Shown piece after piece: positions 5,264-30,858 of a stretch of DNA of 64,000 nucleotides (position 1 is the first letter of the stretch; every line of letters begins with the position of its first letter). The position numbers and the translations under genes are program-made. A model generated the notes under the pieces. It ran no database searches. It worked only from the letters and a program-made list of their open reading frames with translations, and was not told the DNA's origin. Origin of the DNA: a virus; the IMG/VR virus record IMGVR_UViG_3300017783_000010, positions 5,724 to 69,723 of that record; one strand, given 5' to 3'.

Positions 5264-5281
5264 TATTCTTGCTCGTTAGCC

Positions 5282-5452
5282 TTAATTTTCTATGTGGTTA
5301 AAAATTAACTTGCAAATCCAAGCATTTTCAAACTCATACATACCACATACTAACCCTGCTTCTTCTTCTGTGTTGTAGTATATAATTTTTCCGTTTTTAT
5401 CTTTCATATAGTCCATATTTCTAAGGTCTATAATTACATATTTATCTTTCAT
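5282..5452 (-). CDS. Hypothetical protein (56 aa, not in ORF track)
   Basis: Manual translation MKDKYVIIDLRNMDYMKDKNGKIIYYNTEEEAGLVCGMYEFENAWICKLIFNHIEN*; co-oriented with neighbours. Confidence 0.6.
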   Translation of the reverse strand: MKDKYVIIDLRNMDYMKDKNGKIIYYNTEEEAGLVCGMYEFENAWICKLIFNHIEN

Positions 5453-5496
5453 ATTACTGTCCGTTATATGTAATTTAATGTTCTTTCGTTACATGA

Positions 5497-5877
5497 TTAG
5501 TATAATCCCGACTCATACGTACAAATATAATCTTGTAATAAATATTTAAAAGAGTTAACTTCATTAATATCCGAGGTATTGATAGCTTTCCAAAAGCTGT
5601 AGATAAGGTTTAGATCATGTCTGCCTGTCATATCATTTAATATAGCAAACCCTAGTATCGGATAGAAACTACGTTTTTCCTTAAAATGTGGAGTCAAAGC
5701 ACTAGCGTAGTGCAAGGCTTTCTCCAAGTCTTCCTTACCGTTTTTATAAGGATGCCTGATCAAATACTTGAAAAGATTGCCTTCATTAAATGACAGATTG
5801 TTATCATTAATGAAAACCACAGGCTGATACTGCATCTGATAATGTGTTCCTCCGATTTGTTTTTTAGTATCCATCAT
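5497..5877 (-). CDS. DUF3310-like phage protein
   Basis: QIGGTHY...FNEGNLFKYLIRHPYKNGKEDLEKALHY signature. Confidence 0.8.
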   Translation of the reverse strand: MMDTKKQIGGTHYQMQYQPVVFINDNNLSFNEGNLFKYLIRHPYKNGKEDLEKALHYASALTPHFKEKRSFYPILGFAILNDMTGRHDLNLIYSFWKAINTSDINEVNSFKYLLQDYICTYESGLY

Positions 5878-10968: not shown

Positions 10969-12359
10969 GAATAAAGATAGATAACCTACATGGTATATGT
11001 GATTATACACATCCTAAATTTCAAGCACTGAGAGAAGAATATAAGGTAGCTAATCCTGATTATTGGAGAGCAGTAAAGATGTCCCCTTATGCTCAGAAGT
11101 ATTATTACTTCATTACTCAAAAAGGTAAGTTTAGTTTAGGGCATTTGCCCGCAATTGTGCGCTTATGCGATCAGCTAGACATCTCTATTGAGGTTGAGGA
11201 TACTAGATTGCATAAGCAAATATTTAAACCTTTCAGTAAGCAGCTAGGGGAGTATACCTTATATGACCATCAATATAAAGCATTACAGCTTTCTAGTAAT
11301 ACCTTGACTATTTCTGGTCAATATATACCCTATAATAGAGGTATATATAAGATGGCTACGAATAGTGGTAAATCCTTTATTATTGCAAGCAAATGCGTGC
11401 ATCTAAATGAAGGGCATAAAGCTGTAATATTTGTTCATACAGTAGACCTACTAAACCAGTTCTTTAAAACACTAAAGAATTTTGGATTAAATGTAGGCAC
11501 ATTTGGAGGTAAACATAAAAAGACTTCTGTATTTCTTGATTGTGATGTAATCATATCTACCTACAAATCTTATCTATCTTATCACACAAAATCTAGGGAT
11601 GTAAAAGCATTCACAAAGTCGGTAGATTTACTGATTGTAGATGAATGTCACAGAGCATCAGCAAAAGATTATGCTAGAACTATTAAACTTTTTAAAAATG
11701 CAACAAATTTTTATGGCTTTAGTGGTACACCATTCAAGAATGTGATATTAGCAGATAAAAACGTTCAAGGATTATTTGGAGATATCCTCATGGAGGTAAG
11801 TAATGAGGATATGCAAAAGATAGGTGTATCATTAACTCCTGTCGTAAAAATGTATGAAGTAGAATGCGATTATTTTTATTCTTATCAAGAATCTTATGAG
11901 AATAATATCGTATTCTCGCAAGCTAGAGTAGATAAGATGGCTCAATATATTAAACATAATCCAGACCGTCAAATACTAATCCCTGTTAAACGGCTAGATC
12001 ATGGTAAGTTTATATATGAGGCTTTACATAAAATTTGTGATTGTAGATTTCTTTCAGCTACTCACAAATTTAGAGACTATCTATTTGAGCAGTATAGTAA
12101 AAAGGAGTATCAAGTTCTCATTACTACGCTTGGTCAAGAAGGATTAAACTTGCCAATTGACGCATTAATTTATGCTAGAGCAGAAGAGTCGATTGTAAGC
12201 CTTCTTCAATATATAGGCAGAATATTAAGGCTAGAGGGCACTACTAAAAATATTGAGATTGTAGATTTCTATGATAAAGACAATAAAAACCTAGAGAAGC
12301 ATAGCAAGAAAAGACTTCAAATATACAATAAAGAAAAATTTAAAATAGAAAATAATTAA
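10965..12359 (+). CDS. Superfamily 2 DNA helicase (UvsW/T5 D10-like)
   Basis: LYDHQ, ATNSGKS, DECH, SGTP, EGLN, QYIGRILR. Confidence 0.9.
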   Translation: MRIKIDNLHGICDYTHPKFQALREEYKVANPDYWRAVKMSPYAQKYYYFITQKGKFSLGHLPAIVRLCDQLDISIEVEDTRLHKQIFKPFSKQLGEYTLYDHQYKALQLSSNTLTISGQYIPYNRGIYKMATNSGKSFIIASKCVHLNEGHKAVIFVHTVDLLNQFFKTLKNFGLNVGTFGGKHKKTSVFLDCDVIISTYKSYLSYHTKSRDVKAFTKSVDLLIVDECHRASAKDYARTIKLFKNATNFYGFSGTPFKNVILADKNVQGLFGDILMEVSNEDMQKIGVSLTPVVKMYEVECDYFYSYQESYENNIVFSQARVDKMAQYIKHNPDRQILIPVKRLDHGKFIYEALHKICDCRFLSATHKFRDYLFEQYSKKEYQVLITTLGQEGLNLPIDALIYARAEESIVSLLQYIGRILRLEGTTKNIEIVDFYDKDNKNLEKHSKKRLQIYNKEKFKIENN

Positions 12360-12434
12360 TAAAGGGTAATAACTTTAAAAACAAGCACTGCAGAGGTTAT
12401 TACTTATAAAAATTTTGTGGTGCGTTAATTTATT

Positions 12435-12653
12435 ATGGAAACATTACTTAAAATGCTAAATGTTATTTCTTGGATATGTGTAACTGGATGTCCGTTAGTA
12501 ATAGTAATAAAGGTATGTCTACAAAGCAAGTATGAAAACTCATTAGATGAAAAAATAGATATGCTAAAAGGTGTAAAAACTGTATACACACGTGGACTAT
12601 TAAAGTTGAGTATATTATTTGTAGTCGCGTTAGTCTATTTGATTGTGCGATAA
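12435..12653 (+). CDS. Cassette gene, two-TM membrane protein
   Basis: 72 aa; bracketed by ttgtggtgc / gcaccacaac. Confidence 0.65.
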   Translation: METLLKMLNVISWICVTGCPLVIVIKVCLQSKYENSLDEKIDMLKGVKTVYTRGLLKLSILFVVALVYLIVR

Positions 12654-12726
12654 TGCACCACAACGCTAAATGTAAAAAGCGTTTAGGAACGAAATGATTA
12701 GTTACATAATGTTATAAATTTTAATT

Positions 12727-12858
12727 ATGGATATAGAAAAGGAATTTGAAGAACTAAAAGAACTAATAAAAGACACTTACGAGTTTATGGATAGAGACAA
12801 ACTTGACAAGGCTTTAGAAAAACTTGAAAAAATAAGGGTAGACGTGATTGGCAAGTAA
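12727..12858 (+). CDS. Cassette gene, 43-aa hypothetical (not in ORF track)
   Basis: Manual translation MDIEKEFEELKELIKDTYEFMDRDKLDKALEKLEKIRVDVIGK*. Confidence 0.6.
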   Translation: MDIEKEFEELKELIKDTYEFMDRDKLDKALEKLEKIRVDVIGK

Positions 12859-12944
12859 ATGTTTGCTAACGGACGAGTACAAGGTGTCGTAGCGACCTAA
12901 ACAGCACGAAACATTGAATTATAAACAACTTAAATAGATACAAA

Positions 12945-13256
12945 ATGAACTTAATTAAAACACTTACTCGCTATGCACTTTGTACATTGTTAGTTGTCTG
13001 GGCGACTTCTTGCACGGACTCTCGTTTTAAATTACTGAACCGAAATAAAAACGTAGAAATAGGCGATGTTTATTTATATAGCCACGATTGGGATGAAGAA
13101 GACCCATTTGCTAAGATAGAAATAGACACAGTAAGGGTGATTGATGTAAAAGATGGTTATGTAAAATGGCTTTATAAATTAAGTGAAAAAGATAGTAGTT
13201 TTTATTTGAGTGGAAAACTAAAGTATTTTAAGCACAACATTAAGCCTTTCAACTAA
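12945..13256 (+). CDS. Cassette gene, putative lipoprotein
   Basis: Hydrophobic N-terminus ending in WATSC lipobox-like motif; start lies inside the upstream hairpin loop. Confidence 0.6.
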   Translation: MNLIKTLTRYALCTLLVVWATSCTDSRFKLLNRNKNVEIGDVYLYSHDWDEEDPFAKIEIDTVRVIDVKDGYVKWLYKLSEKDSSFYLSGKLKYFKHNIKPFN

Positions 13257-13353
13257 TGTTGAATCTATAAAGCGTGGCGACACGCACAGTATTAATTATT
13301 AACCTTTAACAAGTCCTAGCCATGATTTTATAGATAGTGTTAGGCACAGTTTT

Positions 13354-13593
13354 ATGAGATGGAAAGATAAAAATAATGACGGGTTTTATAAAGGTAAAAA
13401 CAAAGGGTTTTACTTTACTATATCACATGCAAGAGACTATGATGCTTTTTATGTTGTTGCATCCCATCAAAAGAAAGATATTAGATTAAACACTTTGTGG
13501 GAAAATAAGACTTTTAAAACATTTGAATTAGCAGAAGAGTTTTGTAAAACCTTTGACTATAGAAAACACAGATGTATAGGTGACAATACTTAA
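13354..13593 (+). CDS. Cassette gene, hypothetical
   Basis: 79 aa; bracketed by gttaggcaca / tgtgcctaac. Confidence 0.65.
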   Translation: MRWKDKNNDGFYKGKNKGFYFTISHARDYDAFYVVASHQKKDIRLNTLWENKTFKTFELAEEFCKTFDYRKHRCIGDNT

Positions 13594-13655
13594 TTGTGCC
13601 TAACGGTTTATGTATGAGCCGTTGAAATCTAATAAACTTAATAAAAAATTAAACA

Positions 13656-13946
13656 ATGAATAAAGCAAAAAGTAAATTAATAGAAGCTAAAAAATGGCTT
13701 ATACATTTTGTTATGGTGCGTATATTTTTAATAAGTACGCACAAACGCCAAAACTACTTAATAGATAAACACGCAAGTATGTTTTTAGGGTTACAGAACA
13801 TAGCAAAAAAGTACGATAATGACGGAGATGTTAGGACAGCAATGTACATTAGTAGTAAAAGCTACGAACATTTAAATTGGTTTGCTGAATACTGCGGAGT
13901 TTTGAATATAGACCAAGTTAAAAGGATGCGACAATATGCACCATAA
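13656..13946 (+). CDS. Cassette gene, hypothetical
   Basis: 96 aa; stop codon is the TAA of TAAC; start inside the upstream hairpin loop. Confidence 0.6.
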   Translation: MNKAKSKLIEAKKWLIHFVMVRIFLISTHKRQNYLIDKHASMFLGLQNIAKKYDNDGDVRTAMYISSKSYEHLNWFAEYCGVLNIDQVKRMRQYAP

Positions 13947-14005
13947 CGGATTACGGCTAAACTGCGTTGCCGAAGAAATGCAGTATCAATTAAACACATA
14001 AGATT

Positions 14006-14206
14006 ATGAGCAATGAAGTTTTAGCCGATGTTAGCTTTCCGTTATTCCAAGATTTATATGGTAGCTACGTTCAAATGGATGATAGATTTGAAACGGTGCA
14101 TATATGGAGTGAGAAACTAGCAATGAAAAACAAAGGTAGGTGGAAGCCATTATTAATTAGCAAGAAATTGTATGACCAAGAAAAAAAGCACTCTTGGAAT
14201 AATTGA
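14006..14206 (+). CDS. Cassette gene, hypothetical
   Basis: 66 aa; start at the loop/arm boundary of the upstream hairpin; gttagctt / aagctaac ends. Confidence 0.55.
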   Translation: MSNEVLADVSFPLFQDLYGSYVQMDDRFETVHIWSEKLAMKNKGRWKPLLISKKLYDQEKKHSWNN

Positions 14207-14337
14207 AGCTAACGGACGAGTGTATGAAAAAGTAGCCCATACATGGACGTTCGGAATTATTACAAAACTTAATTAGGCTATTTTTTATACACATTGTTAG
14301 CTTTTCGTTTGGAAATCTAGCACAAAACTTAATAGAA

Positions 14338-14628
14338 ATGAACAGTTTATCACACAAAAGTTATGGGGCAATTTATGTTAATAACCCTAAAGACATTAAA
14401 AAAGTAAAAGAAGTAATTAAAGAAATGGATGAGTTTGAATTTGACTATTTGCCATCAGAACTAATAAAGCCTTTTGCTGAATATCCTGCTGTTTGCTACA
14501 CACATAAATTCTCTGATTTAGACACAGATGATTTAACAGCAAAATGTTGGGCAAAAGGAATTATGATTTGGGTGTTTGACGCAAGAACGGAATATCCTAA
14601 AAATGCACTAAGCGAAAATGAAAGCTAA
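14338..14628 (+). CDS. Cassette gene, hypothetical
   Basis: 96 aa; gttagcttt / aaagctaac ends. Confidence 0.65.
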   Translation: MNSLSHKSYGAIYVNNPKDIKKVKEVIKEMDEFEFDYLPSELIKPFAEYPAVCYTHKFSDLDTDDLTAKCWAKGIMIWVFDARTEYPKNALSENES

Positions 14629-14663
14629 CATAGTATATAAGACATATAGCTGATATTTTTTAG

Positions 14664-14719
14664 GATTTGCTTGCAATTGCGCGCAAATCTTTTTAACTTG
14701 GCCTCATTAACTAATTAAA
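14664..14719 (+). promoter_or_regulatory. Promoter/operator module, repeated at 23219-23274
   Basis: gatttgcttgcaattgcg(c/a)gcaaatcttttt-aa(c/a)ttg...tcatta-ctaattaaa in both places directly upstream of genes. Confidence 0.6.
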
Positions 14720-14729
14720 AATATAAGAT

Positions 14730-14921
14730 ATGCTACGTTTAGTTGTTTTAGTAATTTATTGTAAGATGCAAGCATTTGCTTGTGGTAGTATTGAATCTCC
14801 TGATACGTGTATGGAGATGGTATATGATACTACTAAATATGTCGTATCAATAGATTCCTTTAAGTATACTAATTTTATGGAAGAGGGAGTTTGTTTTATT
14901 CATGTGGATACTTTAAAATAA
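14730..14921 (+). CDS. Hypothetical protein
   Basis: 63-aa ORF after the promoter module. Confidence 0.45.
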   Translation: MLRLVVLVIYCKMQAFACGSIESPDTCMEMVYDTTKYVVSIDSFKYTNFMEEGVCFIHVDTLK

Positions 14922-14930
14922 GATAAAATA

Positions 14931-16121
14931 ATGAAACAAGAAAAAATATTAAATGGGATTGCTTTCATTGAGATGGCTGTAGAAATATTAAAGCCCCGAT
15001 CATTAGAGCAAAAATGTAAAAAGGTATATACTAGAAACACCTATATTTCTTATGTGTTTCAATTATTATCCATTTTAACAGGATTAAGTTTTATAGGGTA
15101 TATAGGTAATGAACTTAAAGGAGTATTGTTTATCATATCTTCTTTAGTTTTATTCATTTTGCTTGCAATGATTGAGGCAAGTAAAAGAATACTAATAAAA
15201 GATATAGCTAAACTTTATTTTTCTGAAAATGAGATAAAGTATGTATCTTTATTTTTGTTGGTTATTATATTAGCTGCTTCTGCTAGTATTAGTTATGTGG
15301 GAGGCAGTAAAATACCTTCTGTGATTGTGTCAAGCCAGTCTATTGATTCAACTCAAGTAGCAGAGGTTATTCCTTCTATTCAACTAGACTATACTAGAAA
15401 TCAACTAGATTCAATAGCTAAGTCAATCAGAAAGCAAGAAGCGACTACATATAGAGGAAAAGTAGTTAGGACGGCTAACAATAATTTAACAATACTATAT
15501 GACCAACAATCAGAATATCAAAGTACTCTTTTAGAGTTAGAAAAGGAGCATCAAAAAAAGTTAGATGCTAGGAATCAAGCTTTAGCTGCTATAAAAGAAA
15601 CTAGAGATTTAAAAATAGAAGGTGTCGGATACATCTTTGGAGGAGTAGCTGTTTTTAGTGATATTATGTTAGTGTTTCTTTTATACTTTGCGTATAATTC
15701 CTTGAGAAAAGTTTATAAAAAACATCAAACAAGTACTATACTAAATGCTTATAATGTAACGTTAGAAGAAACGCAAGTACTTGCTAAAGTACCTGAAATC
15801 AAGGAGTTACATGAGCCAAAAGTAACGTTACAAGAAACGCTAGAAGAAAAAGTAACGTTACAAGAAACGCTAGAAGAAACGCAAGAAGAAAAAGTAGCGT
15901 TACAAGAAACGCAAGAAGAAAAAGTAAAAACGGAAGAGGCTACTATAAAAAATGTTCTAAAGATGCCTAAAGCTAAAACTAAAAAAGTCGAAGTAGTAAA
16001 AGGACATTCTAAACAAAGGCGTTGTGATAACTGCGGAGCATCTTATGAATATAAAAGACCAAGTTCGAGGTTTTGTAGTTCAAAATGTAGATTAGAAAAC
16101 CATCAAAATAAAAATAAGTAA
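14931..16121 (+). CDS. Multi-TM coiled-coil protein with C-terminal Cys4 Zn-finger
   Basis: About 4 hydrophobic segments, TLQETLEE repeats, CDNC...FCSSKCR. Confidence 0.65.
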   Translation: MKQEKILNGIAFIEMAVEILKPRSLEQKCKKVYTRNTYISYVFQLLSILTGLSFIGYIGNELKGVLFIISSLVLFILLAMIEASKRILIKDIAKLYFSENEIKYVSLFLLVIILAASASISYVGGSKIPSVIVSSQSIDSTQVAEVIPSIQLDYTRNQLDSIAKSIRKQEATTYRGKVVRTANNNLTILYDQQSEYQSTLLELEKEHQKKLDARNQALAAIKETRDLKIEGVGYIFGGVAVFSDIMLVFLLYFAYNSLRKVYKKHQTSTILNAYNVTLEETQVLAKVPEIKELHEPKVTLQETLEEKVTLQETLEETQEEKVALQETQEEKVKTEEATIKNVLKMPKAKTKKVEVVKGHSKQRRCDNCGASYEYKRPSSRFCSSKCRLENHQNKNK

Positions 16122-18247
16122 TGAAAGATATACCTCATAAAATTATAATGGATTTAGTAGACTTAGAGAAAATATTGGATTCTTGTGTAAAGTCTAAGTT
16201 ATTTTGTTGCGATTTTGAAACTAATACTGTAAATCCTTTTGATGATGATGCCTTAGCTACAATATTAGGATTTACTAATAGAGAGGATTTAATTTATATT
16301 CTACCTATTTATAATGTAGAGGGTACTGTTAGCGAAGAGTTTGTCAAAAAATCTTTTGACCTTATTGCATCAAAGATATTATCAAATTCGAATGTTAGGG
16401 TAATCGCACATAATCTTCAATATGAGTTACATTTCTTTAGATTATGTATGAATAATTATGACTTTGACTTTAAATGTGAGTTGCATGATACGATGGTTAT
16501 GAGTCATTTTATGAACGAAAATCGTAGGCATGGCCTAAAAGGCTTGGTAAATACATTCATAAAATCATATGCAGGCTATGAAAGCGAGTTAAGTCAGTAT
16601 ATGACTGAGAAGAATGATTACTATAATATAAAGTTAGAGCATCTAGCTAGATATTGTGCTATTGATGTTTATGTTACCTTAAAACTTTTTGTGATGTTCG
16701 AGAAAAGGTTGAAAGGAGATGATGAGCATAAAAGGTTATGGGAATGTTATAGTAAAATTAAGATGCCTGCATTGCTCGCTCTTAATGAGGCTACCTCAAA
16801 GGGGATGCATATAGATTTAGAGTTGCTTGCAACTACAATAGAAAAGGTAACAAAAATACAAGAGCAGAAATATGAGGCTATACTCTCTTCTAATGTTCTT
16901 CAAGAATTTCAGTTTGCTAAACGTAAAGAAGCATATGATGCTAGGGTATCTTTATGTAGGGCTAAGATGAAGGAATATAAAGAGCAAGGAAAGAGGGCTT
17001 TTTATAAAAGATGGTCTACTAATTTAGATAAAGCTAATAATAAGCCTAGTGAGGAATGGTATTCTATAAATTTGAATAGTCCTGCTCAGATGAAAGAATT
17101 AATATATACTCATCGTAAAGGATTTAATTATTCTTCTTTAGGTTTATCTAGTGAAACAACAGATTCGTATCAACTAATGGAAATATACCGAATTTTTCCA
17201 TATAATACTTTTTTAGTTAATTTGCTTGCTTATAGGACAGTGAGTAAAATACTAAATACTTATCTGATAGGTATAAGAGATAGGCTAGATGGAGATAAAA
17301 TACATGGTAGGTTTAACATTAATGGTACAAAAACAGGCCGCATATCAAGTTCAGACCCAAATTTACAAAATTTAATTTCTCGTTCATCTATTGATGATGC
17401 GGACGTTCAAGATACTATCAAAATAGTAAAAAAGCTATTTATTGCTCCACAGGGGTATGATTTCGTACAGATTGATTATGCCACTATGGAGTTGAGAATT
17501 GCGGCGGCTTTTGCGGATGAAGGTAATATGATTAAAGCCTTTGCTAACGGTGAGGATTTACACGCTAAAACGGCGGCTAATGTTCTTGAGGGAGTCTCTG
17601 TAGAGGAATTTAATACTTATGAGAAGTCAAAAAGAAAAAAGATCAGATTCAAGGCGAAAGCCGTTAATTTTGGATTTCTTTATGGGATGAGTGCAGAGTC
17701 TTTTAAGGACTATGTTAAGAATATGACTGGACAAATTGTAAGTAGCGAAGAGGCTGTTCATATTAGAAATAAGTTTTTTAAAACTTATTCTAATCTTACC
17801 GATTGGTACACTAAGAGTAGCTCCTTTGTAACAAAATATTCATTTGTTAGGACATTCTTTGGTACTAAGAGAAGAGTAGGCTACTTATTTAATACTACTG
17901 AGAAGTATAAGATAAAAAGTCTCTCAGTAAACGCCCCAGTTCAAGGTACTAGCGGGTTATGGACTCTGGCGGCTATTGCTGAAATATATAAAGAATTTAA
18001 AAATAATGATTCGGTGGTGATAGCTAACACTATACATGATAGTGTTATATTTTATGTGAAAAGAGATCAAGACTATAATAGAAATCTACTAAGGATTCGT
18101 GAAATTATGGAATGGCCTTCGGTAGTAGAGGATTATCCTGCTGTAAAAACATATAAAGAAAACTTGAGGAAAATAGGATTAAAAGTAGATTTAGAGGTTT
18201 CTTCAAAGTCTTGGGGGGATTTAAAAGAAATTGACTTTCCCTCTTGA
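16121..18247 (+). CDS. polA: DNA polymerase family A with 3'-5' exonuclease
   Basis: DFET, HN, YCAID exonuclease motifs; TGRISSSDPNLQN, DYATMELR, KAVNFGFLYG, IHDS. Confidence 0.95.
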   Translation: MKDIPHKIIMDLVDLEKILDSCVKSKLFCCDFETNTVNPFDDDALATILGFTNREDLIYILPIYNVEGTVSEEFVKKSFDLIASKILSNSNVRVIAHNLQYELHFFRLCMNNYDFDFKCELHDTMVMSHFMNENRRHGLKGLVNTFIKSYAGYESELSQYMTEKNDYYNIKLEHLARYCAIDVYVTLKLFVMFEKRLKGDDEHKRLWECYSKIKMPALLALNEATSKGMHIDLELLATTIEKVTKIQEQKYEAILSSNVLQEFQFAKRKEAYDARVSLCRAKMKEYKEQGKRAFYKRWSTNLDKANNKPSEEWYSINLNSPAQMKELIYTHRKGFNYSSLGLSSETTDSYQLMEIYRIFPYNTFLVNLLAYRTVSKILNTYLIGIRDRLDGDKIHGRFNINGTKTGRISSSDPNLQNLISRSSIDDADVQDTIKIVKKLFIAPQGYDFVQIDYATMELRIAAAFADEGNMIKAFANGEDLHAKTAANVLEGVSVEEFNTYEKSKRKKIRFKAKAVNFGFLYGMSAESFKDYVKNMTGQIVSSEEAVHIRNKFFKTYSNLTDWYTKSSSFVTKYSFVRTFFGTKRRVGYLFNTTEKYKIKSLSVNAPVQGTSGLWTLAAIAEIYKEFKNNDSVVIANTIHDSVIFYVKRDQDYNRNLLRIREIMEWPSVVEDYPAVKTYKENLRKIGLKVDLEVSSKSWGDLKEIDFPS

Positions 18248-19010
18248 CTTTTACTATAAAATACATTATATTTGTAAAAGATTTTTTAACCAAAATAAGT
18301 ATATATATATGTCATTTTTAGAAGCATTTCAAACGCAAGAACCGGACAGAGACTTTAATTTTTTAGCAGGCAATAAACTAACTGAACAAGGAACTGACAT
18401 TATAATCAGTAATGTTTGTTTAGGCAATAAACCCTTAAAAAAGGTTGTATTTTGGGCGGAAAAATCCCCTTATATCAGCCAAAAAACATTCAAGGAACAA
18501 TGCCCCTTAGATGATGAGTTACTCGCCTTTTACAAGGCTTATCCGAAGGATTCTCCAGAAAGAGCAGCCCTGAAAAGCCAAAACAGGACTTTCTCAAAAA
18601 AGCAGCCTACCGACTTAGTTGTGTATATAATCAATGGGGATGAAGTAGATAATACCCCTGTGGTATTAAGTTGTGGTTCCGCTTTGTCTGATGCTATCTC
18701 TTCTATTTTAAGTAGCCCCCCAAAAGGCAGTAATGCGGAGGATTTTATTTTAAGCGCCAATGGTCAAGAGATATACCCGATAACGATTAGTAAATCGGGA
18801 ACAGGATTGAATACCAAATATCAAGCGCAAATGCATCTCACTAAATTTGAGTTTGATTCTCCAGAGGCCATCGAATCGGCAAAGGGGGTGGATTTATTAG
18901 GTATAGCTAGAGCAGAAGCTAATAGAAAGCCTATTTATGATGCTTTAGCTTATTTCAAGGACACGGTGGTTCCTACCTGTGTAGCAGGCGAAGTAAGCGA
19001 CAATATTTAG
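18231..19010 (+). CDS. Probable ssDNA-binding / replication accessory protein
   Basis: ITISKSGTGLNTKY motif seen in phage SSB-like proteins; between PolA and SbcD; likely start ATG 18309. Confidence 0.5.
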   Translation: MTFPLDFYYKIHYICKRFFNQNKYIYMSFLEAFQTQEPDRDFNFLAGNKLTEQGTDIIISNVCLGNKPLKKVVFWAEKSPYISQKTFKEQCPLDDELLAFYKAYPKDSPERAALKSQNRTFSKKQPTDLVVYIINGDEVDNTPVVLSCGSALSDAISSILSSPPKGSNAEDFILSANGQEIYPITISKSGTGLNTKYQAQMHLTKFEFDSPEAIESAKGVDLLGIARAEANRKPIYDALAYFKDTVVPTCVAGEVSDNI

Positions 19011-19090
19011 TATGATTTTTAATTAGTTAACTATAGAGGATGGCTTTCATTTTATGTTAGTCATCCTTTTTACTTTAAATTATAATTTGT

Positions 19091-20038
19091 ATGAAAGTAT
19101 TAGTTTTTTCTGACCTTCATGTGAATAAATATAAAAGATTTAGTGATGGGGACAGTAGATTAGATGACTGTTTGAATATACTTAAACAAGTATATAAAAC
19201 AGCTAATGATCATCAAATTGAAAATATATTATTTTGCGGAGATTTTTTTGATACTCAGTACTCTATTAATACTAGGGTATTGACTAAAACTCTGGAAGTA
19301 ATGCAAAAAATGTCGGAGAAATACCCTGAAATTTATATGTTCGGTATTACTGGCAACCATGACCTTGCTACAAGAGAGGGAGATAAATATAGTTCTGCGA
19401 TAAGTATGTTTGATACAATAACCAGTATCAATTTCTTGTCTTTAGATTATAAAGCCGCAAGACTAGGAAAGGATGTTAGAGTAATAGGTATCCCATACAA
19501 AAATTCAGAAATAGAATTTAGTAACGAACTAGATGAGATCGTAAGAAATGAGGATGTATCAGATGCAATTTTATTAGTACATCAAACACCTAAAAAATTC
19601 CATTATACAGGTGAATGCGATGAAAAAGACCCAAGGCTTGATCCCTTTATTAAAGTATTTTCTGGACATATACATGATAGGGATAACTACAACTATAACT
19701 TTACGATGGTAGGCAATCCTTTGCATAGAGATTTATCAGACGCAGGGGTAGAAAAAGGATGCTTAATCTTTGATACAGACACTAAAGTAATAGATTTTAT
19801 ATCTTTTGAGGATTTTTATCCTTCTTTTGTAAAAGTTGAGCAAGGGCAAGAGGATAATTCTTCTGCAAGAGATTTTGTAGTTACCGTAACATCGAATATA
19901 GAGAATGAAAAATTCGATGAAGGGTTAAGTTACTCTGATACGTCTAACCTACAAAATCTGGTGGTACAGTATGTAGAAAATGAGTTACATAGAGATGACT
20001 CAGATTTAGTAATTAAAATCGGAAAAGAATGTATATAA
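19091..20038 (+). CDS. SbcD/Mre11-like metallophosphoesterase nuclease
   Basis: FSDLH, CGDFF, GNHD, SGHIH; adjacent to SbcC-like gene. Confidence 0.9.
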   Translation: MKVLVFSDLHVNKYKRFSDGDSRLDDCLNILKQVYKTANDHQIENILFCGDFFDTQYSINTRVLTKTLEVMQKMSEKYPEIYMFGITGNHDLATREGDKYSSAISMFDTITSINFLSLDYKAARLGKDVRVIGIPYKNSEIEFSNELDEIVRNEDVSDAILLVHQTPKKFHYTGECDEKDPRLDPFIKVFSGHIHDRDNYNYNFTMVGNPLHRDLSDAGVEKGCLIFDTDTKVIDFISFEDFYPSFVKVEQGQEDNSSARDFVVTVTSNIENEKFDEGLSYSDTSNLQNLVVQYVENELHRDDSDLVIKIGKECI

Positions 20039-21795: not shown

Positions 21796-23198
21796 TGAGG
21801 TCATATATTAGATTAGAAAAGGGAAAAGAAAAAGAACAGAATCACATAACTATGACGGAAATATCTTACGAGGATGAAAGATATTCCATATTATTCCTAT
21901 CAAATGAGGGTGTAATAGATAATATGCTAAACAATATTGCAGGCAGCTTAGAAAAACAAGAAAATAGGATTGGCGAATCTTACATATTCGATACAATCAT
22001 ACATGAGTATGAGTCATCCTCTCTAAGAGATTTTTCAACCGAATTTACAAAGTCACTAACCCAGTTTGGTTCAGCATTAAGGTGGGGTCTATTTATTGTG
22101 GATGAGCTATTAGATACTGTAACGGTTGTCCTAGATGAGTTAGGAACAATACCTGTTTACTACCGATTATCTGCAGAAAAAATCGAACTGACAACTAGAC
22201 TATTTTTTCAAAAAGGTGTAGAGTGGTCACATGATGGAGTTACCCAGATAATCGGTAATAATATGTCAAGCGATTACTCATTATTATCGGACTGGTATCC
22301 CCTAAAGGCTAATTCTTGCTACAAGTTTACATTAGGTAATGATAGCATTGAGTCAGTTCAAAACTTAAATATTAGTAAATTAGGTATACCAGTTCTGCCT
22401 CATATAGCTGAGGAATTTAACTTTAAAACGAGTTACGACTCGTATGATAATGTGATACAGACTTTTAAGTATATATTTAGTAAAACCGTAGAATCTTTAC
22501 CTAATAACTGCGCTTATTTAGCGCAAGGATCGCCTCTTGATGCTCTTATTATTGAAGAGATGTTCTCCAGAGGGATTAAATTTAAAGTATTCTACATAAA
22601 TGGATTATCTGATACTTATGTAGAATATTTTAAATCGTTTCATGGTCTTAAAACGTGTGATGCGACTGAACTAAAAGTAGATATTGAAGATACAAAATTC
22701 AATGAAATACTATGTAGCTTTGATTATTCTGATTATTTCGTAACAAACGCTATATCACAAATTAAAAAAGATGGTTTTGATGAGGTATTTGGTTGCTTTG
22801 CCGCAAGTTATTTCTTACATGACTGGAAAGGAGGAGAATCAGATATTGCGACACACGCACTAGAAGAATTTATAACGATGAAACAAGATTACCGATCCAG
22901 AATTGGTAAACTTATTGCCGATATATCATTTGTGGCTAAGATTGAAGTCAATGACTTACTAACTAGTGATCTAGTAACTAGCGTGATGCATGGATTCTCG
23001 ATAGCTAGTATGATAGCAGAACTTTCAAACTCAAATATTGATGACTTCGCTAAGTTTCTTAGAAATCTTTATTTCTCATATGGCATTAAGAAAGAAATAA
23101 TCAATGAAACACCTACCTTTTTGTTTACCCCACTTGGAGGCAGTTCAATAGAGCAAAAAGAGGCTTTAGCTGAAAAAATTATTTCTTCTTTACTGTAA
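21795..23198 (+). CDS. Divergent asparagine synthetase/Ntn amidotransferase-like protein
   Basis: DELGTIPVYY resembles the DxxGxKPLYY motif; catalytic motifs appear degenerate. Confidence 0.4.
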   Translation: MRSYIRLEKGKEKEQNHITMTEISYEDERYSILFLSNEGVIDNMLNNIAGSLEKQENRIGESYIFDTIIHEYESSSLRDFSTEFTKSLTQFGSALRWGLFIVDELLDTVTVVLDELGTIPVYYRLSAEKIELTTRLFFQKGVEWSHDGVTQIIGNNMSSDYSLLSDWYPLKANSCYKFTLGNDSIESVQNLNISKLGIPVLPHIAEEFNFKTSYDSYDNVIQTFKYIFSKTVESLPNNCAYLAQGSPLDALIIEEMFSRGIKFKVFYINGLSDTYVEYFKSFHGLKTCDATELKVDIEDTKFNEILCSFDYSDYFVTNAISQIKKDGFDEVFGCFAASYFLHDWKGGESDIATHALEEFITMKQDYRSRIGKLIADISFVAKIEVNDLLTSDLVTSVMHGFSIASMIAELSNSNIDDFAKFLRNLYFSYGIKKEIINETPTFLFTPLGGSSIEQKEALAEKIISSLL

Positions 23199-23283
23199 GT
23201 TAATAAAATATTTTTTAAGATTTGCTTGCAATTGCGAGCAAATCTTTTTAAATTGCAGTCATTATCTAATTAAACTAAATATT

Positions 23284-23661
23284 ATGTCATTATCAGAAGC
23301 ACCAACTACACTCTTAGGAAAAACAGTTCGCTCTATCAGAGAACTAAGTGATGGCTGTATTTCCCTAGAATTTACTGATGGCTCTACTTTTTGGCTAAAT
23401 AGCTCGACAACATTAGCTCCAATAGTTGACTGTAGCAACGATAACTTATTAGGAAACGTTATTGTTGGTATAAAATTTGAATCAACTATTAAATTAGATG
23501 AATCTTTTTATACTTGCAGTATAGAAGTATATAATGATGAAACGTCCTCATACCAGATGTTTTCGATCTGGCTAAAAGGATTAAGCGGTAAGAAAGAGGA
23601 GATGCGAAGAAACTTAAAAACAAATCCACTTCATTTTGTGAATGCAGATTTACCATTTTAA
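23284..23661 (+). CDS. Hypothetical protein
   Basis: 125-aa ORF after the repeated promoter module. Confidence 0.6.
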   Translation: MSLSEAPTTLLGKTVRSIRELSDGCISLEFTDGSTFWLNSSTTLAPIVDCSNDNLLGNVIVGIKFESTIKLDESFYTCSIEVYNDETSSYQMFSIWLKGLSGKKEEMRRNLKTNPLHFVNADLPF

Positions 23662-23663
23662 TT

Positions 23664-23903
23664 ATGAACACGATTATTATAATATTGCTCCTACTTGCAT
23701 TAGTAGGGCATTACAAAATAAATAAAATGAAAGAAGTTATTAAGTTTTTAACCATAGCAGTCATGTATTTTTTAATATTTGCATACGATATAGAGTATCA
23801 TAGGGATGTATATACATGGCTATGGCTCTTAAACAGTATTATATTTATACTATTTGGTGCGATATCTTATACTAATTATAAAAAAAAATTAAATAAAATA
23901 TGA
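23664..23903 (+). CDS. Small membrane protein
   Basis: Hydrophobic 79-aa ORF overlapping the thyA start. Confidence 0.5.
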
Positions 23904-24685
23904 AACAATATCACGATCTGTTAGAAAAACTTGTTCATTCAAGTACAAACAAGGATGACCGAACAGGAACAGGAACATTGAGCGTATTCGGTCATCAAAT
24001 GCGTTTCGACTTGAGTCAAGGGTTCCCGTTAGTGACTACAAAGAAGGTACATTTTAAATCCATTGTACATGAACTTCTGTGGTTCTTAAAAGGGGATACC
24101 AATATTAAATACCTACAAGAAAATGGTGTACGTATTTGGAATGAATGGGCAGATGAAAATGGTAGTATTGGTAAGGGGTATGGCTATCAATGGAGAAACT
24201 GGAATGGAAGCGGTATTGACCAAATTGCAAAAGCAGTAGAGACTATAAAGAATAATCCAGATTCTCGTCGTATTATTGTATCTGCATGGAATGTAGAGCA
24301 GCTAGACGAGATGCAACTACCTCCTTGTCATGCGTTCTTCCAATTTTATGTAGCCGAGGGTAAATTATCATGTCAATTGTATCAGCGTTCGGCTGATGTA
24401 TTTCTTGGTGTACCTTTTAATATTGCTTCTTATTCACTACTAACGATGATGATGGCACAGGTTTGTGATCTGGAAGCAGGAGAATTTGCACACACTCTTG
24501 GTGATGCACACTTATACAAGAATCATTTGGAGCAAGCAAAGCTTCAATTGTCTCGTTCACCAAGGTCTTTACCCTCAATAAAAATCAATCCTCATGTGGA
24601 CGATATATTTTCTTTCCAATTTGATGACTTTGAGTTGATAGATTATAATCCTTATTCACATATCAAAGCAAAAGTAGCTGTATAA
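23900..24685 (+). CDS. thyA: Thymidylate synthase
   Basis: [41 protein letters not shown]. Confidence 0.98.
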
Positions 24686-24788
24686 TGAAAGACAACTTTT
24701 TTAAAGCATTAGGAACAGCTTTGTTTCTTATGTTAATAACATTAATATTTATTTTATCAATAATATTAACACTAGTATTAATATACAT

Positions 24789-25724: not shown

Positions 25725-25744
25725 AATATTTTTTAAAAAATAGG

Positions 25745-25880
25745 TTGGACGCAATCGCTTGCAATTCAATGAGTTGTAAGCGATTTTTTTATTTTATATA
25801 AAATTTATTATATTAATTACTTGCAGGGTATTGTTTATTGTCTTATATTGCAGACATATTATTTAATCAATCAAAAACTT
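25745..25880 (+). repeat. 136-bp terminator+promoter module, copy 1
   Basis: Nearly identical to 28655-28790 (2 differences) and similar to 29552-29684; aatcgcttgcaa...ttgtaagcgatt hairpin + T run, then ttgc...tatattgc promoter-like motif. Confidence 0.9.
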
Positions 25881-25882
25881 TT

Positions 25883-26089
25883 ATGGAAACTGCAAAAATA
25901 TCAATAAAAATCGGGGAAGAGCTAGAAGAAACAGGAATGGTAAATGTTTGGTGGTGGAAAGATGGAAGTGAGCCAAACCAAGAGTGGAAAACAAAAAGAC
26001 CGATATGGGAGTTTCTTGATTCAAAAAAAAACATTTATGCTGACAATAGGAGAAACAATTGTAATAAAGAAATTAAAACTAAAACGTAA
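25883..26089 (+). CDS. Hypothetical protein leading cassette array 2
   Basis: ATG at 25883 directly after the promoter module (track start 25838 is TTG inside the promoter). Confidence 0.55.
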   Translation: METAKISIKIGEELEETGMVNVWWWKDGSEPNQEWKTKRPIWEFLDSKKNIYADNRRNNCNKEIKTKT

Positions 26090-26197
26090 TTTCGAGTTTG
26101 TTCAGTAATGCAGCATAACGTTCAATGTATCGCACGTTTTAATGTGCTATACATAGTGTTAGGTTTTAGTAGAAATTATTAAAAATTATTAAAAATT

Positions 26198-26335
26198 ATG
26201 TATTACGCAGAAAAAATAATAAACGGGATATTACATTGTAAGCACACCCCTAACGGAAAGTGGAATATTAAATGTTACAGGGGTGATATTGATAAACCCG
26301 AAAAACAAACGGTGATACTTATTGATAAGTGGTAG
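26198..26335 (+). CDS. Cassette gene, 45-aa hypothetical (not in ORF track)
   Basis: Manual translation MYYAEKIINGILHCKHTPNGKWNIKCYRGDIDKPEKQTVILIDKW*. Confidence 0.55.
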   Translation: MYYAEKIINGILHCKHTPNGKWNIKCYRGDIDKPEKQTVILIDKW

Positions 26336-26449
26336 CTTGCGCATAACGCCTACGGCTATGAATTGAAGTCGTGTAACAAATGTTCGATTCAAAGAAATAA
26401 CCTTAACAAAGGCTTTTATTTATAGCCATTGTTAGCAAATTTTAAAATT

Positions 26450-26641
26450 ATGATTAAAGAAATTGAAACATTGATTGATGTAGAAGTAAGCATAAACAGA
26501 AGTATTTTAATCTACGAACTTCTTGGGTATTTTGGTGATAGACTTCCAGAAGATGTACAAACTGAAATGAGAGAACGGGCAGTAAAAGAATCCAAACAAG
26601 TTGATAAAATGACCAATAAGGTGGTTAAGCGGTTGCAATAA
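26450..26641 (+). CDS. Cassette gene, hypothetical
   Basis: ATG 26450; gttagcaa / ttgctaac ends. Confidence 0.6.
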   Translation: MIKEIETLIDVEVSINRSILIYELLGYFGDRLPEDVQTEMRERAVKESKQVDKMTNKVVKRLQ

Positions 26642-26748
26642 TTTTTATTGTTGCTAACGGTTTGGCTATGTGCTGAACGTAGAGTAACGGAGTTTTGCAT
26701 ATAGGTAATGTTATATGCTTTTTATTAACAGATTTAAAGTAAAATATT

Positions 26749-26931
26749 ATGAAAAGATTTAATTTAAAATACAACGTAGGAAAAGTAAAGTATTTAGTTT
26801 CTTACCATAATGGAGAAAAGAAACATAAAGATGGAAGCGACTTCTTTGATATTGCTTACTTTAAAAATAAAGTAAAACTAAATGCTTTTACGAATGAATT
26901 ACTAAAACAAGGGTACGTTAATTGCATATAA
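26749..26931 (+). CDS. Cassette gene, hypothetical
   Basis: 60 aa; gttatatgc / gcatataac ends. Confidence 0.65.
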   Translation: MKRFNLKYNVGKVKYLVSYHNGEKKHKDGSDFFDIAYFKNKVKLNAFTNELLKQGYVNCI

Positions 26932-27041
26932 CGGAATCGTATAAGATTTCGTGCGAGGTACGAGGATGAATTTTATACAGTGTTACCCATCTGTATTTTT
27001 AAAAATGGCAATTAGTGAGGAACGAACTAAAATTAAAGAGA

Positions 27042-27638
27042 ATGAGTAAGAAATATAATATTATTTATGCTGACCCAGCTTGGGAACAAAAAGCAGGTAG
27101 ACCATTAAGTGGTGGCTACAAAAAAGAAAATGGTGTGCAAGTATTTAACCCTAAAAGCGATAAATCTGCAGACTTACCTTATAGCACAATGAAGTTTGAG
27201 GATATAGTAAACTTACCTATTAAAAAACTAACTGATGATAACTGTCATTTGTATTTATGGGTTACTAATAAGTATTTAATGAAAGCTGAACAAGTTATTA
27301 AAGCTTGGGGTTTTAAATACTCTACTACTTTAGTTTGGTGTAAGAAACCAATAGGTAGTGGAATGGGGGGAACATTTAAAGTGTCTACAGAATATTTAAT
27401 ATTTGCTACTAAGGGTAAGGTTAATGAATTAGTAAGAGAAAAAGTAAATGGCACTTGGTTTGAAGAAAAAAGACAATATGTAAATGGTTATCCTTGCCAT
27501 TCTAAAAAACCAGATTTCTTTTATGAATTAATAGAGAAAGTATCTAAAGGTAAAAAACTTGAATTATTTTCAAGAAATGAGCGTAAAGATTGGGATGCTT
27601 GGGGAAATGAAATAGAAAATTCAATTACGATTGAGTAA
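27042..27638 (+). CDS. MT-A70 family adenine methyltransferase (cassette gene)
   Basis: KYNIIYADPAW, LYLWVT, WGFKY, HSKKP, LELFSR, WDAWGNE; ATG 27042 preferred over GTG 27015. Confidence 0.9.
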   Translation: MSKKYNIIYADPAWEQKAGRPLSGGYKKENGVQVFNPKSDKSADLPYSTMKFEDIVNLPIKKLTDDNCHLYLWVTNKYLMKAEQVIKAWGFKYSTTLVWCKKPIGSGMGGTFKVSTEYLIFATKGKVNELVREKVNGTWFEEKRQYVNGYPCHSKKPDFFYELIEKVSKGKKLELFSRNERKDWDAWGNEIENSITIE

Positions 27639-27789
27639 GCACGTATGAGTGGTTGCCATTTTTAAAAATACAGATGGGTAACGGTTTGAATAAGATTAGT
27701 AGCGCAACGCTACACACCTTAATGGTTGCACCTGCCCTATTTGCGCTATTAATTTTATTTGTTGTTATAGGGCGTTTTATACTTGAATT

Positions 27790-27993
27790 ATGAATATTAA
27801 TGAAGTTTTTAAAAAATACCCAAACGAAGAACCAAGCTATAATGGCGTTAACTATCTAACGCTAGTTGATGTAAATGGTAATATTAGTTATGCAATCACA
27901 TATTTTAATGATAACGCAGAATTTGAACCTAAATGGGGTAAGGTAGTAGCATTTGCAGACAAACAACCAAGTGATATTTTAAATGCCCTATAA
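27790..27993 (+). CDS. Cassette gene, hypothetical
   Basis: 67 aa; gttatagggc / gccctataac ends. Confidence 0.65.
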   Translation: MNINEVFKKYPNEEPSYNGVNYLTLVDVNGNISYAITYFNDNAEFEPKWGKVVAFADKQPSDILNAL

Positions 27994-28038
27994 CGTAATT
28001 GTATAACAAAAGTTACGTGAAAATAATTACTGTATTTA

Positions 28039-28069
28039 TTTGGTATGTATAAAATATTTACTATCTTTG
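28039..28069 (+). promoter_or_regulatory. Bacteroidota-type sigma70 promoter inside a cassette hairpin loop
   Basis: TTTG (28039-42), 19 nt, TATCTTTG (28062-69) matches -33 TTTG / -7 TAnnTTTG. Confidence 0.65.
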
Positions 28070-28096
28070 TTAAACAATAACTTAAAAACAGATATT

Positions 28097-28294
28097 ATGA
28101 GTACTACAGAAAAGACATTACAAGCCTTTACAAAAGAAGTAAACCCGCTAAATGAAAACTGCATCTGCATTTTTGAACAAAGAGCAGTTAGAAAGCATTT
28201 ACTATTCCAAATTGATAAAGCAAATTTTGAAAGCGATAACGAGTTTTTAAATGCAGTTGATTTTATACTAATTTCATTAAATAAGAACTTGTAA
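28097..28294 (+). CDS. Hypothetical protein inside hairpin loop
   Basis: ATG 28097 downstream of promoter; 65 aa. Confidence 0.6.
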   Translation: MSTTEKTLQAFTKEVNPLNENCICIFEQRAVRKHLLFQIDKANFESDNEFLNAVDFILISLNKNL

Positions 28295-28443
28295 TGGCGA
28301 CTAAAAAAGTAACAATTACAATCACAGACGAAATGCACCAAAAAGGAAACGACTTATCTGTTTTGGTGCTTGGGAATGAAAACTTTAGTGGCTTAATAAG
28401 CTATATGATTAATAAACTTCATAAAGAAACGAATAGCAAGTAA
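28294..28443 (+). CDS. Ribbon-helix-helix-like small DNA-binding protein (not in ORF track)
   Basis: MATKKVTITITDEMHQKGNDLSVLVLGNENFSGLISYMINKLHKETNSK*; alternating beta strand followed by two helices; TAATG coupling. Confidence 0.55.
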   Translation: MATKKVTITITDEMHQKGNDLSVLVLGNENFSGLISYMINKLHKETNSK

Positions 28444-28654
28444 TTTTTGTTATACGTTGTTATGTGCGCTTTTTGCGCTTGTAGTGGTGGTTTTAATGCA
28501 CTAGTCTAGTCTAGCGAAAATACGTTGGCAATGAGGATTGTGAAACGAACTGCAACAAACTTAAACCACCATTACACATAACATAGTATATCAGCTATAT
28601 GTCTGATATACTCTCCATTCATAAGCTATTATTTTTTTTTTTTTAAAAATTAGT

Positions 28655-28790
28655 TTGGACGCAATCGCTTGCAATTCAATGAGTTGTAAGCGATTTTTTT
28701 ATTTTATATAAAATTTATTATATTAATTACTTGCAGGGTATTGTTTATTGTCTTATCTTGCATACATATTATTTAATCAATCAAAAACTT
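28655..28790 (+). repeat. 136-bp terminator+promoter module, copy 2
   Basis: Direct repeat of 25745-25880. Confidence 0.9.
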
Positions 28791-28795
28791 AAATT

Positions 28796-29536: not shown

Positions 29537-29551
29537 TTTGGACGCCACTAT

Positions 29552-29684
29552 TTGGACGCAATCGCTTGCACTTCAATGAGTTGTAAGCGATTCTTTATTT
29601 TATCTGAAATTTATTATATTAATTACTTGCTTGGTATCAAAAATTATAGTACCTTGTAAGCATATTATTTAATCAATTAAAAAC
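29552..29684 (+). repeat. Terminator+promoter module, diverged copy 3
   Basis: ttggacgcaatcgcttgca.ttcaatgagttgtaagcgatt...attatattaattacttgc...catattatttaatcaat. Confidence 0.8.
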
Positions 29685-30836: not shown

Positions 30837-30858
30837 TTTGCTCGATGCTCGATGCTTG

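Follow-up and report, generated by a model that had tools for sequence, protein, structure and literature searches.

The 64,000-nucleotide (nt) stretch of viral DNA analyzed here (positions 5,724 to 69,723 of the IMG/VR record IMGVR_UViG_3300017783_000010; the whole stretch is referred to as "the window") contains two arrays of small open reading frames (ORFs) with sites between them that resemble the attC sites of integrons, and both arrays end, on their 3' side, in copies of one short sequence, the terminal site (Table 1). We lean towards considering this site as an attI-like, double-stranded terminus of a cassette platform that is of the integron type, lacks an integrase and is carried by a virulent-type phage of Bacteroidota. 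An attI-like primary insertion site at this end of the arrays had been suggested in an earlier note, which was based on the letters of the DNA alone. This suggestion gains support from an exact array boundary, from the presence of site variants at six of seven array ends in two phages, from a polarity which is that of the attI-proximal end in bacteria, and from an ATATA box located 4 nt from the crossover and accompanied by a second AT box, whereas no phage recombinase was found, a profile of attI sites is blind to the terminal site and a hairpin noted in one copy is not conserved.

Array Boundaries and Their Recurrence in a Sister Phage

The array boundary is defined by comparison with a sister phage, an IMG/VR contig of 66.6 kb (CheckV estimate, 100%) whose backbone is 85-92% identical to that of the window and circularly permuted. 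The similarity detected by blastn stops at position 12363, just past the stop codon of the helicase gene, and restarts at 14626, i.e., at the TAAC of the terminal site; in between, window and sister have nothing in common. Likewise, the bases preceding TAAC differ in all six copies of the site, while those following it are conserved. As is the case for an attI site, the crossover (G|TT, or AA|C) at the array boundary separates conserved from cassette-specific sequence. The six copies are located at positions 14626 and 28579 of the window and, in the sister, at L001:9906, L001:10553 and L002:5645 and at the end of a minus-strand array. The three plus-strand arrays of the sister end in TAAC followed by sequences starting with AAGGTATATCAGAAATATTG, AAGGTATATCAGACATATGA and AGGGTATATCAGAAATAAAA, and in its minus-strand array, in which two of the cassettes encode methyltransferases, the final TAAC, read in gene sense, precedes AAGTAATATCAGACATATGTCGATAC. 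The end of the sister's array 2 is not captured, as the circularly permuted contig breaks inside that array.

The earlier note had proposed to search other genomes for the motif at the ends of cassette arrays, and such a search showed it to be specific to this phage clade. A search of IMG/VR with a 17-nt terminal pattern containing two free positions returned 65 loci, and array ends were found only in the sister (three matches at two loci); the remaining 63 loci were judged by eye to be unrelated, mostly coding contexts. A looser pattern yielded 11 matches in 1.06 Mb of viral loci, consisting of two sister array ends, two copies of one stretch of the sister backbone away from array ends, and seven matches in other phages. 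Two of these seven were inspected (L178 and L183), and the match in L178 was discarded as an ordinary attC site read on the other strand.

The elements between the array ORFs start with ..TAAC, form an imperfect hairpin and end with GTTA... The terminal site might, in principle, be no distinct attI-type site at all, and instead represent the inverse core and first arm that remain of an ordinary attC-like site after the loss of its right half. Indeed, internal sites also exhibit (G)TAT(A/G)-type boxes a few bases past TAAC, an internal site of array 1 at position 12867 lacks the closing GTTA, and other phages carry recurrent half sites which begin with the 16-mer usual for this site family and have no GTTA. 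However, the spacing that follows TAAC amounts to 3-4 nt in the terminal site as opposed to 5-8 nt in internal sites of the same sense, the terminal sequence is retained in arrays that do not have a single internal site in common, and an identical truncation would be needed at six array ends. A truncated last attC is consequently considered improbable.

Polarity of the Sites and Resemblance to Bacterial attI

The attC-like sites are asymmetric, with the arm that contains the 16-mer being 2-3 nt longer than the other. In bacterial loci, this 16-mer lies mostly antisense to the ORF strand (55 antisense, 9 sense and 19 unclear; n = 83), whereas in viral loci it lies mostly in the sense orientation (57 sense, 3 antisense and 35 unclear; n = 95). 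The left-arm motif is situated opposite the integrase strand in 42 versus 10 instances in bacteria and on the plus strand in 10 versus 1 instances in the window. The phage ORFs are therefore inverted relative to the polarity of the sites, and in this respect the arrays deviate from clusters of attC sites lacking integrases (CALINs) in which each ORF precedes the attC that belongs to it and has the orientation seen in bacterial arrays. Read in the sense of the 16-mer, a bacterial array has ..YAAC at the end of its 3' side, and beyond this lie attI, as its reverse complement, and the integrase gene (seven of seven loci with arrays). Since site polarity is opposite in phages and bacteria, the 3' end of a phage array corresponds to the attI end of a bacterial array, and the terminal site thus has the same polarity relative to the attC sites as attI has in complete integrons of the same family.

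Read in the sense of the integrase, the phage copies consist of ATATA, 4 nt and GTT, plus an ATAT-containing box further upstream. The minus-strand copy of the sister, for example, reads GATATTAC, TT, GTT, compared with GATATAAC, CA, GTT in bacteria.

The Integron Integrase of Flavobacteriaceae

The integron-integrase model identified tyrosine recombinases of 375-403 amino acids (aa) in five array-bearing genomes. At seven of the eight integrase loci examined, the gene, which encodes 375-395 aa there, is followed by a co-directional array of ORFs and sites. The platform, present at L316 (integrase at 1973-3154) and at loci L317-L322, L324-L353, L356 and L361-L389, thus has the order integrase, conserved attI, and ORFs with long attC-like sites. 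The Flavobacteriaceae integrase carries ordinary Pfam integrase domains and scores below the curated cut-offs of TIGR02249 (198 and 193 bits versus 265) and NF040815 (209 bits versus 220). It aligns to TIGR02249 in two stretches and skips model positions 181-236, which we take to be the region of the IntI-specific insertion. Both hallmarks of a canonical IntI, a score above the TIGR02249 cut-off and the IntI-specific insertion, are accordingly missing. Homologues of this integrase were found in 105 of 151 Flavobacteriaceae genomes sampled (about 70%; E <= 1e-40) and in 56 of the 81 genomes that made up a sample of the genus Polaribacter (E <= 1e-60), with the weaker matches possibly including paralogues.

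Downstream of the integrase stop codon, 32 of 36 Flavobacteriaceae loci (27 recognized by pattern and five by eye) show a common arrangement, ..TATATTTG, 5-6 nt, [GC]ATATAAC, 2 nt and GTT, beyond which the sequence is genome-specific. The same motif is present at 28 of 30 Polaribacter loci, one of them unconvincing. Judged by its sequence and position, this conserved stretch is the predicted attI of the platform, with a crossover at or near G|TT. The part of the IntegronFinder 2.0 report that deals with Bacteroidetes gives only In0 elements and a single complete integron, and a literature search, supplements aside, returned no description of a Flavobacteriaceae integron platform or of terminal sites of phage arrays.

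Evidence Against an attI-Like Role and a Passive Junction as Alternative

Several observations weigh against an attI-like function of the terminal site. The site does not adjoin an integron integrase gene, and a tyrosine recombinase (PF00589) was found neither in the whole 69.7-kb record (55 window ORFs were scanned) nor in the records of the sister and of Polaribacter phage P12002L, while a search of 1.6 Mb of viral loci gave a single weak match only. The resemblance to bacterial attI is limited to boxes which are short and A+T-rich in an A+T-rich genome; their spacing is 5 nt in the phage versus 8 nt in bacteria, and the L-box of the phage, ATATAC plus 3 nt, differs from the bacterial ATATAAC plus 2 nt. 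The pattern AAC-N4-TATAT-N3-12-ATAT has two matches in the window, both of them terminal sites (mean of simulations, 0.35; 4% of simulations give at least two), and it was composed after both sets of sites were known, with its first half alone giving six matches versus 3.9 expected. A profile hidden Markov model of 27 bacterial attI sites, applied to the window, to the loci of the sister and to P12002L, did not recover the terminal sites among its matches up to E = 100. The terminal sequence of P12002L, considered as a further attI match, was rejected, as it resembles neither the site of the window nor the Polaribacter attI consensus. Moreover, no cassette occupies the same locus in both phages, hence no gradient of novelty toward the site can be demonstrated.

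Two loci of the window also belong here. The exception among the seven array ends is the mini-array at 5267-5524, in which TAAC is followed by the terminator after 7 nt; at this locus, the sister contains a 1.9-kb minus-strand array (L001:681-2592) with a terminal-site variant. At position 23208, the window has a terminator-like module and neither an array nor a terminal site, whereas the sister carries an array here. The lack of the site at an array-less module suggests that it may travel with arrays instead of pre-existing as a landing site. As a separate observation, a stretch resembling the terminal site lies upstream of the 56-aa ORF at the 5267-5524 locus.

Some of these points would equally fit a passive junction. 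In this scenario, the site would be a backbone flank or a secondary site of an ancestral array, the copies of which spread together with whole arrays by homologous recombination between modules and have no present role in recombination. Besides the empty module at 23208 and the failure of the bacterial attI profile, this scenario is favored by direct module repeats that flank arrays (25729-25880 and 28639-28790, 97% identical), by the location of a sister array (L002:3735-5668) between two module copies, and by the arrays of P12002L, which share a terminal stretch of ~66 nt including the downstream leader, like a duplicated block. In addition, one metagenome contig joint, from 28777 to 29610, connects two module copies and would delete the gene between them, but it is weak (side of 28 nt). 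On the other hand, the two window copies precede different terminator/promoter modules, which shows that the site is not simply part of one module, and yet retain their first 13 nt and the boxes. Across six copies in two phages, the part adjacent to the crossover is kept while the right halves drift, and position, polarity and the ATATA-N4-GTT spacing agree with bacterial attI. Given these features, a purely passive junction is regarded as rather unlikely, and an attI-like site continues to be the interpretation we prefer.

The Two Window Copies and the Flipped Core

The sequence at 14626 is TAACATAGTATATAAGACATATAGCTGATA and that at 28579 is TAACATAGTATATCAGCTATATGTCTGATATAC. The earlier note had described both sites as sharing their 13-nt start, and a search of both strands found the exact 13-mer at these two positions only; it is also absent from the remaining 5.7 kb of the record outside the window. 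If up to two mismatches are allowed, ten matches compare with 8.5 expected, so that only the exact pair is remarkable. Two more of its statements were upheld, namely that the inner 14 nt of the two copies agree as reverse complements at 13 of 14 positions and that neither copy has the closing GTTA. Read directly, the same nucleotides agree at only 9 of 14 positions, and one inversion with one substitution is therefore more parsimonious than five substitutions. The inverted core, in contrast, has to be reduced in size: the inverted part comprises the 8-nt loop of a quasi-palindrome with a 9-bp stem, and since it is flanked by inverted arms, the true difference between the copies is the orientation of this loop. 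Copy 1 has the core orientation common to the sister copies, which identifies copy 2 as the flipped one.

The perfect hairpin attributed to copy 2 is significantly stable when folded as DNA (-7.0 kcal/mol with z = -3.7; of 200 shuffles, one did as well). For copy 1, however, this is not the case (-1.3 kcal/mol, z = 0.3), and three copies of the sister fold no better than shuffles (-3.3, -1.3 and -3.6 kcal/mol with z = -1.4, 0.4 and -1.5, respectively). With one of five folded copies being significant, the hairpin is not conserved, as is expected of a double-stranded site.

These data also bear on the possibility that the site acts at the RNA level as a terminator, attenuator or processing hairpin which closes the array transcript. 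Its location at the 3' end of each operon-like array, the good hairpin of copy 2 and the continuation of copy 1, and of the three plus-strand copies in the sister, into ATATTTTTT would be compatible with such a function. However, an intrinsic terminator consists of a stable G+C stem and a T-run that are conserved among copies, and the terminal site lacks this combination: besides the four copies that fold no better than shuffles, no T-run follows the stem of copy 2, separate G+C-rich stem-loops with T-runs are present downstream at 14663-14695 and 28654-28700, and a simple search for terminators (12200-15000) gave none at the site. An RNA element is thus considered very improbable, and we return to the attI-like site.

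Template switching at quasi-palindromes inverts the loop between short inverted arms, and the flipped copy acquires perfect arms. The copies of the terminal site conform to this pattern, as they differ by an inverted segment between short arms and the arms of copy 2 are perfect. In contrast to a plain quasi-palindrome inversion, the palindrome resides inside a putative recombination site, and an integrase-mediated inversion between the inverted boxes may also be possible.

The Cassette Arrays

The window contains what defines a CALIN, i.e., at least two close attC sites, each consisting of an imperfect hairpin bounded by an inverse core (..YAAC) and a core (GTTR..). Nine such sites were found in the two arrays: those of array 1 (13250, 13601, 13944 and 14210) have detector scores of 7.8-14 and those of array 2 (26116, 26344, 26655, 26929 and 27679) scores of 10.5-20, on the scale of a purpose-made attC detector that gives ~20 false matches per 64 kb at its lower threshold of 7.5. 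Each array ORF is preceded by GTTA plus 3-25 nt which are the reverse complement of the bases that follow the ORF and end in TAAC. These boxes are 7-29 nt long and cassette-specific, and inverse-core/core pairs are located at 13340/13595, 13711/13938, 14297/14621, 26432/26651, 26711/26924, 26983/27653 (29 nt), 27765/27985 and 28460/28575. A count of 7-mer pairs over the whole window does not exceed that in shuffles, and the evidence for the pairs consists in their positions at the ORF flanks. Such ORF-specific complementary flanks are the hallmark of integron cassettes with a circular intermediate. Comparison of the 15 array ORFs with PHROG and Pfam revealed no credible family except for the methyltransferase, and no Rfam family reached the gathering score in the window, where array 2 gave only chance-level matches.

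Table 1. Coordinates of the terminal sites, arrays and associated modules in the window.
Feature	Position	Strand	Description
Terminal site, copy 1	14626..14656	+	Inverse core TAAC of the last cassette (14626-14629), then conserved terminal sequence; core orientation of the sister type
Terminal site, copy 2	28579..28611	+	TAAC and the same 9 nt, then flipped core; perfect hairpin with 9-bp stem
Array 1	12363..14629	+	Seven small ORFs with attC-like sites between them; no similarity to the sister's array at that locus
Array 2	25881..28582	+	Eight small ORFs, including one MT-A70 methyltransferase, with attC-like sites between them
Representative attC-like site with the widespread 16-mer	26655..26713	+	16-mer common to phage and Bacteroidota arrays
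MT-A70 methyltransferase cassette	26982..27682	+	Perfect inverted flanks of 29 bp (GTTA... / ...TAAC)
Mini-array	5267..5524	-	One small ORF of 56 aa ending in ..GGCTAAC; abuts terminator without terminal site
Terminator-like module after terminal site 1	14653..14719	+	90% identical copy at 23208-23274 (family D19)
Site without array in the window	23198..23274	+	Sister has an array of four ORFs plus terminal site here, between two module copies
Terminator plus promoter-like module upstream of array 2	25729..25880	+	Direct repeat, 97% (families D8, D3, D12), of 28639-28790
Second module copy, downstream of terminal site 2	28639..28790	+	97% identical to 25729-25880

Contigs from four public metagenome runs were compared with the window, and window parts without cover were ignored. 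In these contigs, an ORF is replaced between conserved flanks, from 28101 to 28290 in three runs and from 26446 to 26643 in one run; the contigs retain the 5' leader of the cassette and the inverse core, with other sequence in place of the ORF. Similarly, an attC site and leader (26653-26754) are common to window and sister, where they precede unrelated ORFs. ORFs thus seem to be swapped inside conserved cassette frames, and a simple exchange between attC sites does not seem to explain such swaps. One metagenome contig diverges from the window right after 28612, which, as a single contig, is weak. Contig joints from 14300 to 28579 (two runs of one sample, side of 24 nt) and from 26664 to 28441 (side of 20 nt) were not counted as evidence because their sides are shorter than 30 nt.

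Distribution of the attC Family in Phages and Bacteroidota

The 16-mer of the attC-like site at 26655 was found in at least 119 viral contigs (at least 131 matches), mostly with the full site layout and upstream of a start codon. It is also present in at least 120 genome contigs, mostly from Bacteroidota, and 59 of the 125 matches listed have the full layout; the raw count in the genome collection is near chance, and only the taxonomic enrichment and the shared structure count. Arrays of 26655-type sites in Flavobacteriaceae reach up to 17 sites per 8 kb. An all-against-all blastn comparison placed 368 of 966 block starts within 2 nt of a TAAC, a result of little weight, since the loci had been chosen by the 16-mer that starts there.

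Polaribacter phage P12002L carries the same site family as the window. The MT-A70 cassette of the window has 35 identical nt of its 5' flank in common with the flank of a homologous gene of P12002L, the "Mom-like" gp53 (L307 37200-38117). In P12002L, two arrays end in their own shared sequence right after the last TAAC, and the phenomenon of a shared terminal sequence hence recurs in an unrelated phage. A recurrent half site, consisting of the 16-mer and a small unrelated hairpin without GTTA, is found in the viral loci L070, L071, L075, L080, L081, L085, L098, L115, L119, L166, L172, L175 and L183, in several of which it precedes a gene starting with MSKE... This half site may be the terminal site of another phage clade.

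Terminator and Promoter Modules, Repeats and Phage Context

Repeated modules composed of a terminator and a promoter-like part (25785-25878, 28695-28788, 29591-29684, 32353-32446, 33096-33189 and 34180-34233, and also 14653-14719 and 23208-23274) precede several genes of the early region and flank whole arrays. Recombination between modules may lead to the gain and loss of whole arrays. G+C-rich hairpins with TGTTAG at the end of each unit are repeated in tandem (families D10, D11 and D16) at 34083-35100, a position conserved in the sister (L354:230-480); they could constitute an origin or protein-binding iterons. Further tandem repeats with units of 15, 20, 204 and 10 nt occur at 30046-30235, 30839-31018, 54836-55447 and 59286-59407, respectively, and the 15-nt repeat encodes EKLES-type repeats at the start of a glucosaminidase-domain ORF (30015-30779).

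The window represents most of a 69.7-kb viral record with a G+C content of ~32%. It encodes a family A polymerase, primase, helicase, SbcCD, thymidylate synthase, terminase and tape measure protein, with nearly all genes on a single strand. The backbone match to the 66.6-kb sister and its circular permutation suggest that the record is probably near complete. A blastn search of a phage database with array 1, the backbone and one attC site gave zero matches. The relatives of the polymerase among named phages are only ~27% identical, which indicates that the window has no close relative among them.

Comparison With Known Systems

The terminal site shares several features with the attI sites of integrons (e.g., attI1 of class 1): the first cassette adjoins a conserved sequence at a G|TT crossover, the site appears double-stranded rather than folded, an inverse-core-like box near the crossover is accompanied by a further box upstream, and its polarity relative to the attC sites is fixed. 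In contrast to attI, the phage site has no integrase gene next to it and is present in two to four copies per phage genome. The inversion of the cassette ORFs places it at the 3' end of the genes, distal to the promoter. It also matches its bacterial counterpart in short boxes only, a profile search fails, and its activity is putative.

The arrays themselves have precedents in the CALINs of virulent phages (Qi, Rajabal, Ghaly, Tetu and Gillings, 2023; PMC9892861). According to the main text of that study, 17 CALINs were obtained from isolate genomes, including integrase-less attC arrays of P12002L and methyltransferase cassettes; HattCI/INFERNAL calls are given for two P12002L sites, "divergent directions" of the P12002L attC sites are noted, and IntI1-dependent recombination with attI1 was demonstrated for five of six attC sites of virulent phages, including one P12002L site (Qi et al., 2023). 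For virulent phages, the same main text describes no shared terminal attI-like site, no ORF polarity inverted with respect to bacterial arrays and no partner integrase from Flavobacteriaceae. The Flavobacteriaceae platform resembles the Treponema case, as treated in the relevant part of Cury et al. (2016; PMC4889954), in that integrase, attI and cassettes are all co-directional, and it differs from that case in its integrase, which remains below the TIGR02249/NF040815 cut-offs and skips positions 181-236.

The repeated terminator/promoter modules of the window, which flank variable genes, are comparable to known repeats of other phages, except that whole arrays are flanked here. In T4-type phages, the "mobile regulatory cassettes" termed PeSLs and ascribed to Arbiol and co-workers (2010) reportedly consist of early-promoter and stem-loop repeats that flank variable small genes and can mediate their shuffling. 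PeSLs are said to act by homologous recombination between modules, and TAAC/GTTA core sites, cassette-specific inverted boxes or a terminal site are not known from them.

Proposed Mechanism and Implications

These observations can be combined into a model in which cassettes would be joined head to tail via folded attC-like sites, and the last cassette would join the phage backbone at a crossover inside the inverse core (TAA|C). The conserved, non-folding sequence beyond this crossover presents two AT-rich boxes that are placed like the binding boxes of bacterial attI. The enzyme that we infer to bind the site, to catalyze the exchange and to be active at present would be the Xer-like integron integrase of the host, which neighbors arrays of the same attC family in most of the Flavobacteriaceae sampled and might insert and excise phage cassettes during infection. 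Owing to the inversion of the ORFs with respect to the bacterial platform, the capture end would come to lie at the 3' end of the phage operon, just before the terminator. The flipped core of copy 2 would, in this model, have arisen secondarily by loop inversion of the quasi-palindrome, via template switching or recombination between the inverted arms.

A more far-reaching and tentative proposal is that virulent phages of marine Bacteroidota might carry "mirror" integron platforms, which would be composed of one or more attI-like sites and inverted-gene attC arrays without an integrase, and might exploit the widespread, non-canonical integrase of their Flavobacteriaceae hosts for the exchange of a phage-only pool of cassettes during co-infection. 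This pool would include methyltransferases and many orphan ORFs, which are plausibly counter-defense genes. If this were true, the arrangement would correspond, on the side of the phage, to the bacterial integrons in which genes for anti-phage defense are stored.

The attC arrays of phages have been known since the description of phage CALINs in 2023. Within the literature searched, four features appear to be new, namely the terminal site common to the arrays, the inverted polarity of the cassettes, the wide distribution of the family and the non-canonical partner platform of Flavobacteriaceae. Integrons are usually seen as bacterial devices defined by their integrase, whereas here an attI-like end and attC arrays are found in lytic-type phages without the enzyme. 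The same attC family extends to the viral contigs counted above and is located beside a non-canonical integrase in about 70% of sampled Flavobacteriaceae genomes, a group in which IntegronFinder surveys, as far as their accounts of Bacteroidetes go, show almost no integrons. Even if inactive, the terminal site would be a precise marker of array boundaries for the annotation of these phages. If the site is active, it would provide a testable route by which phages remodel accessory, probably counter-defense, genes via a host recombinase, and it would widen the definition of integron platforms in a main group of marine bacteria.

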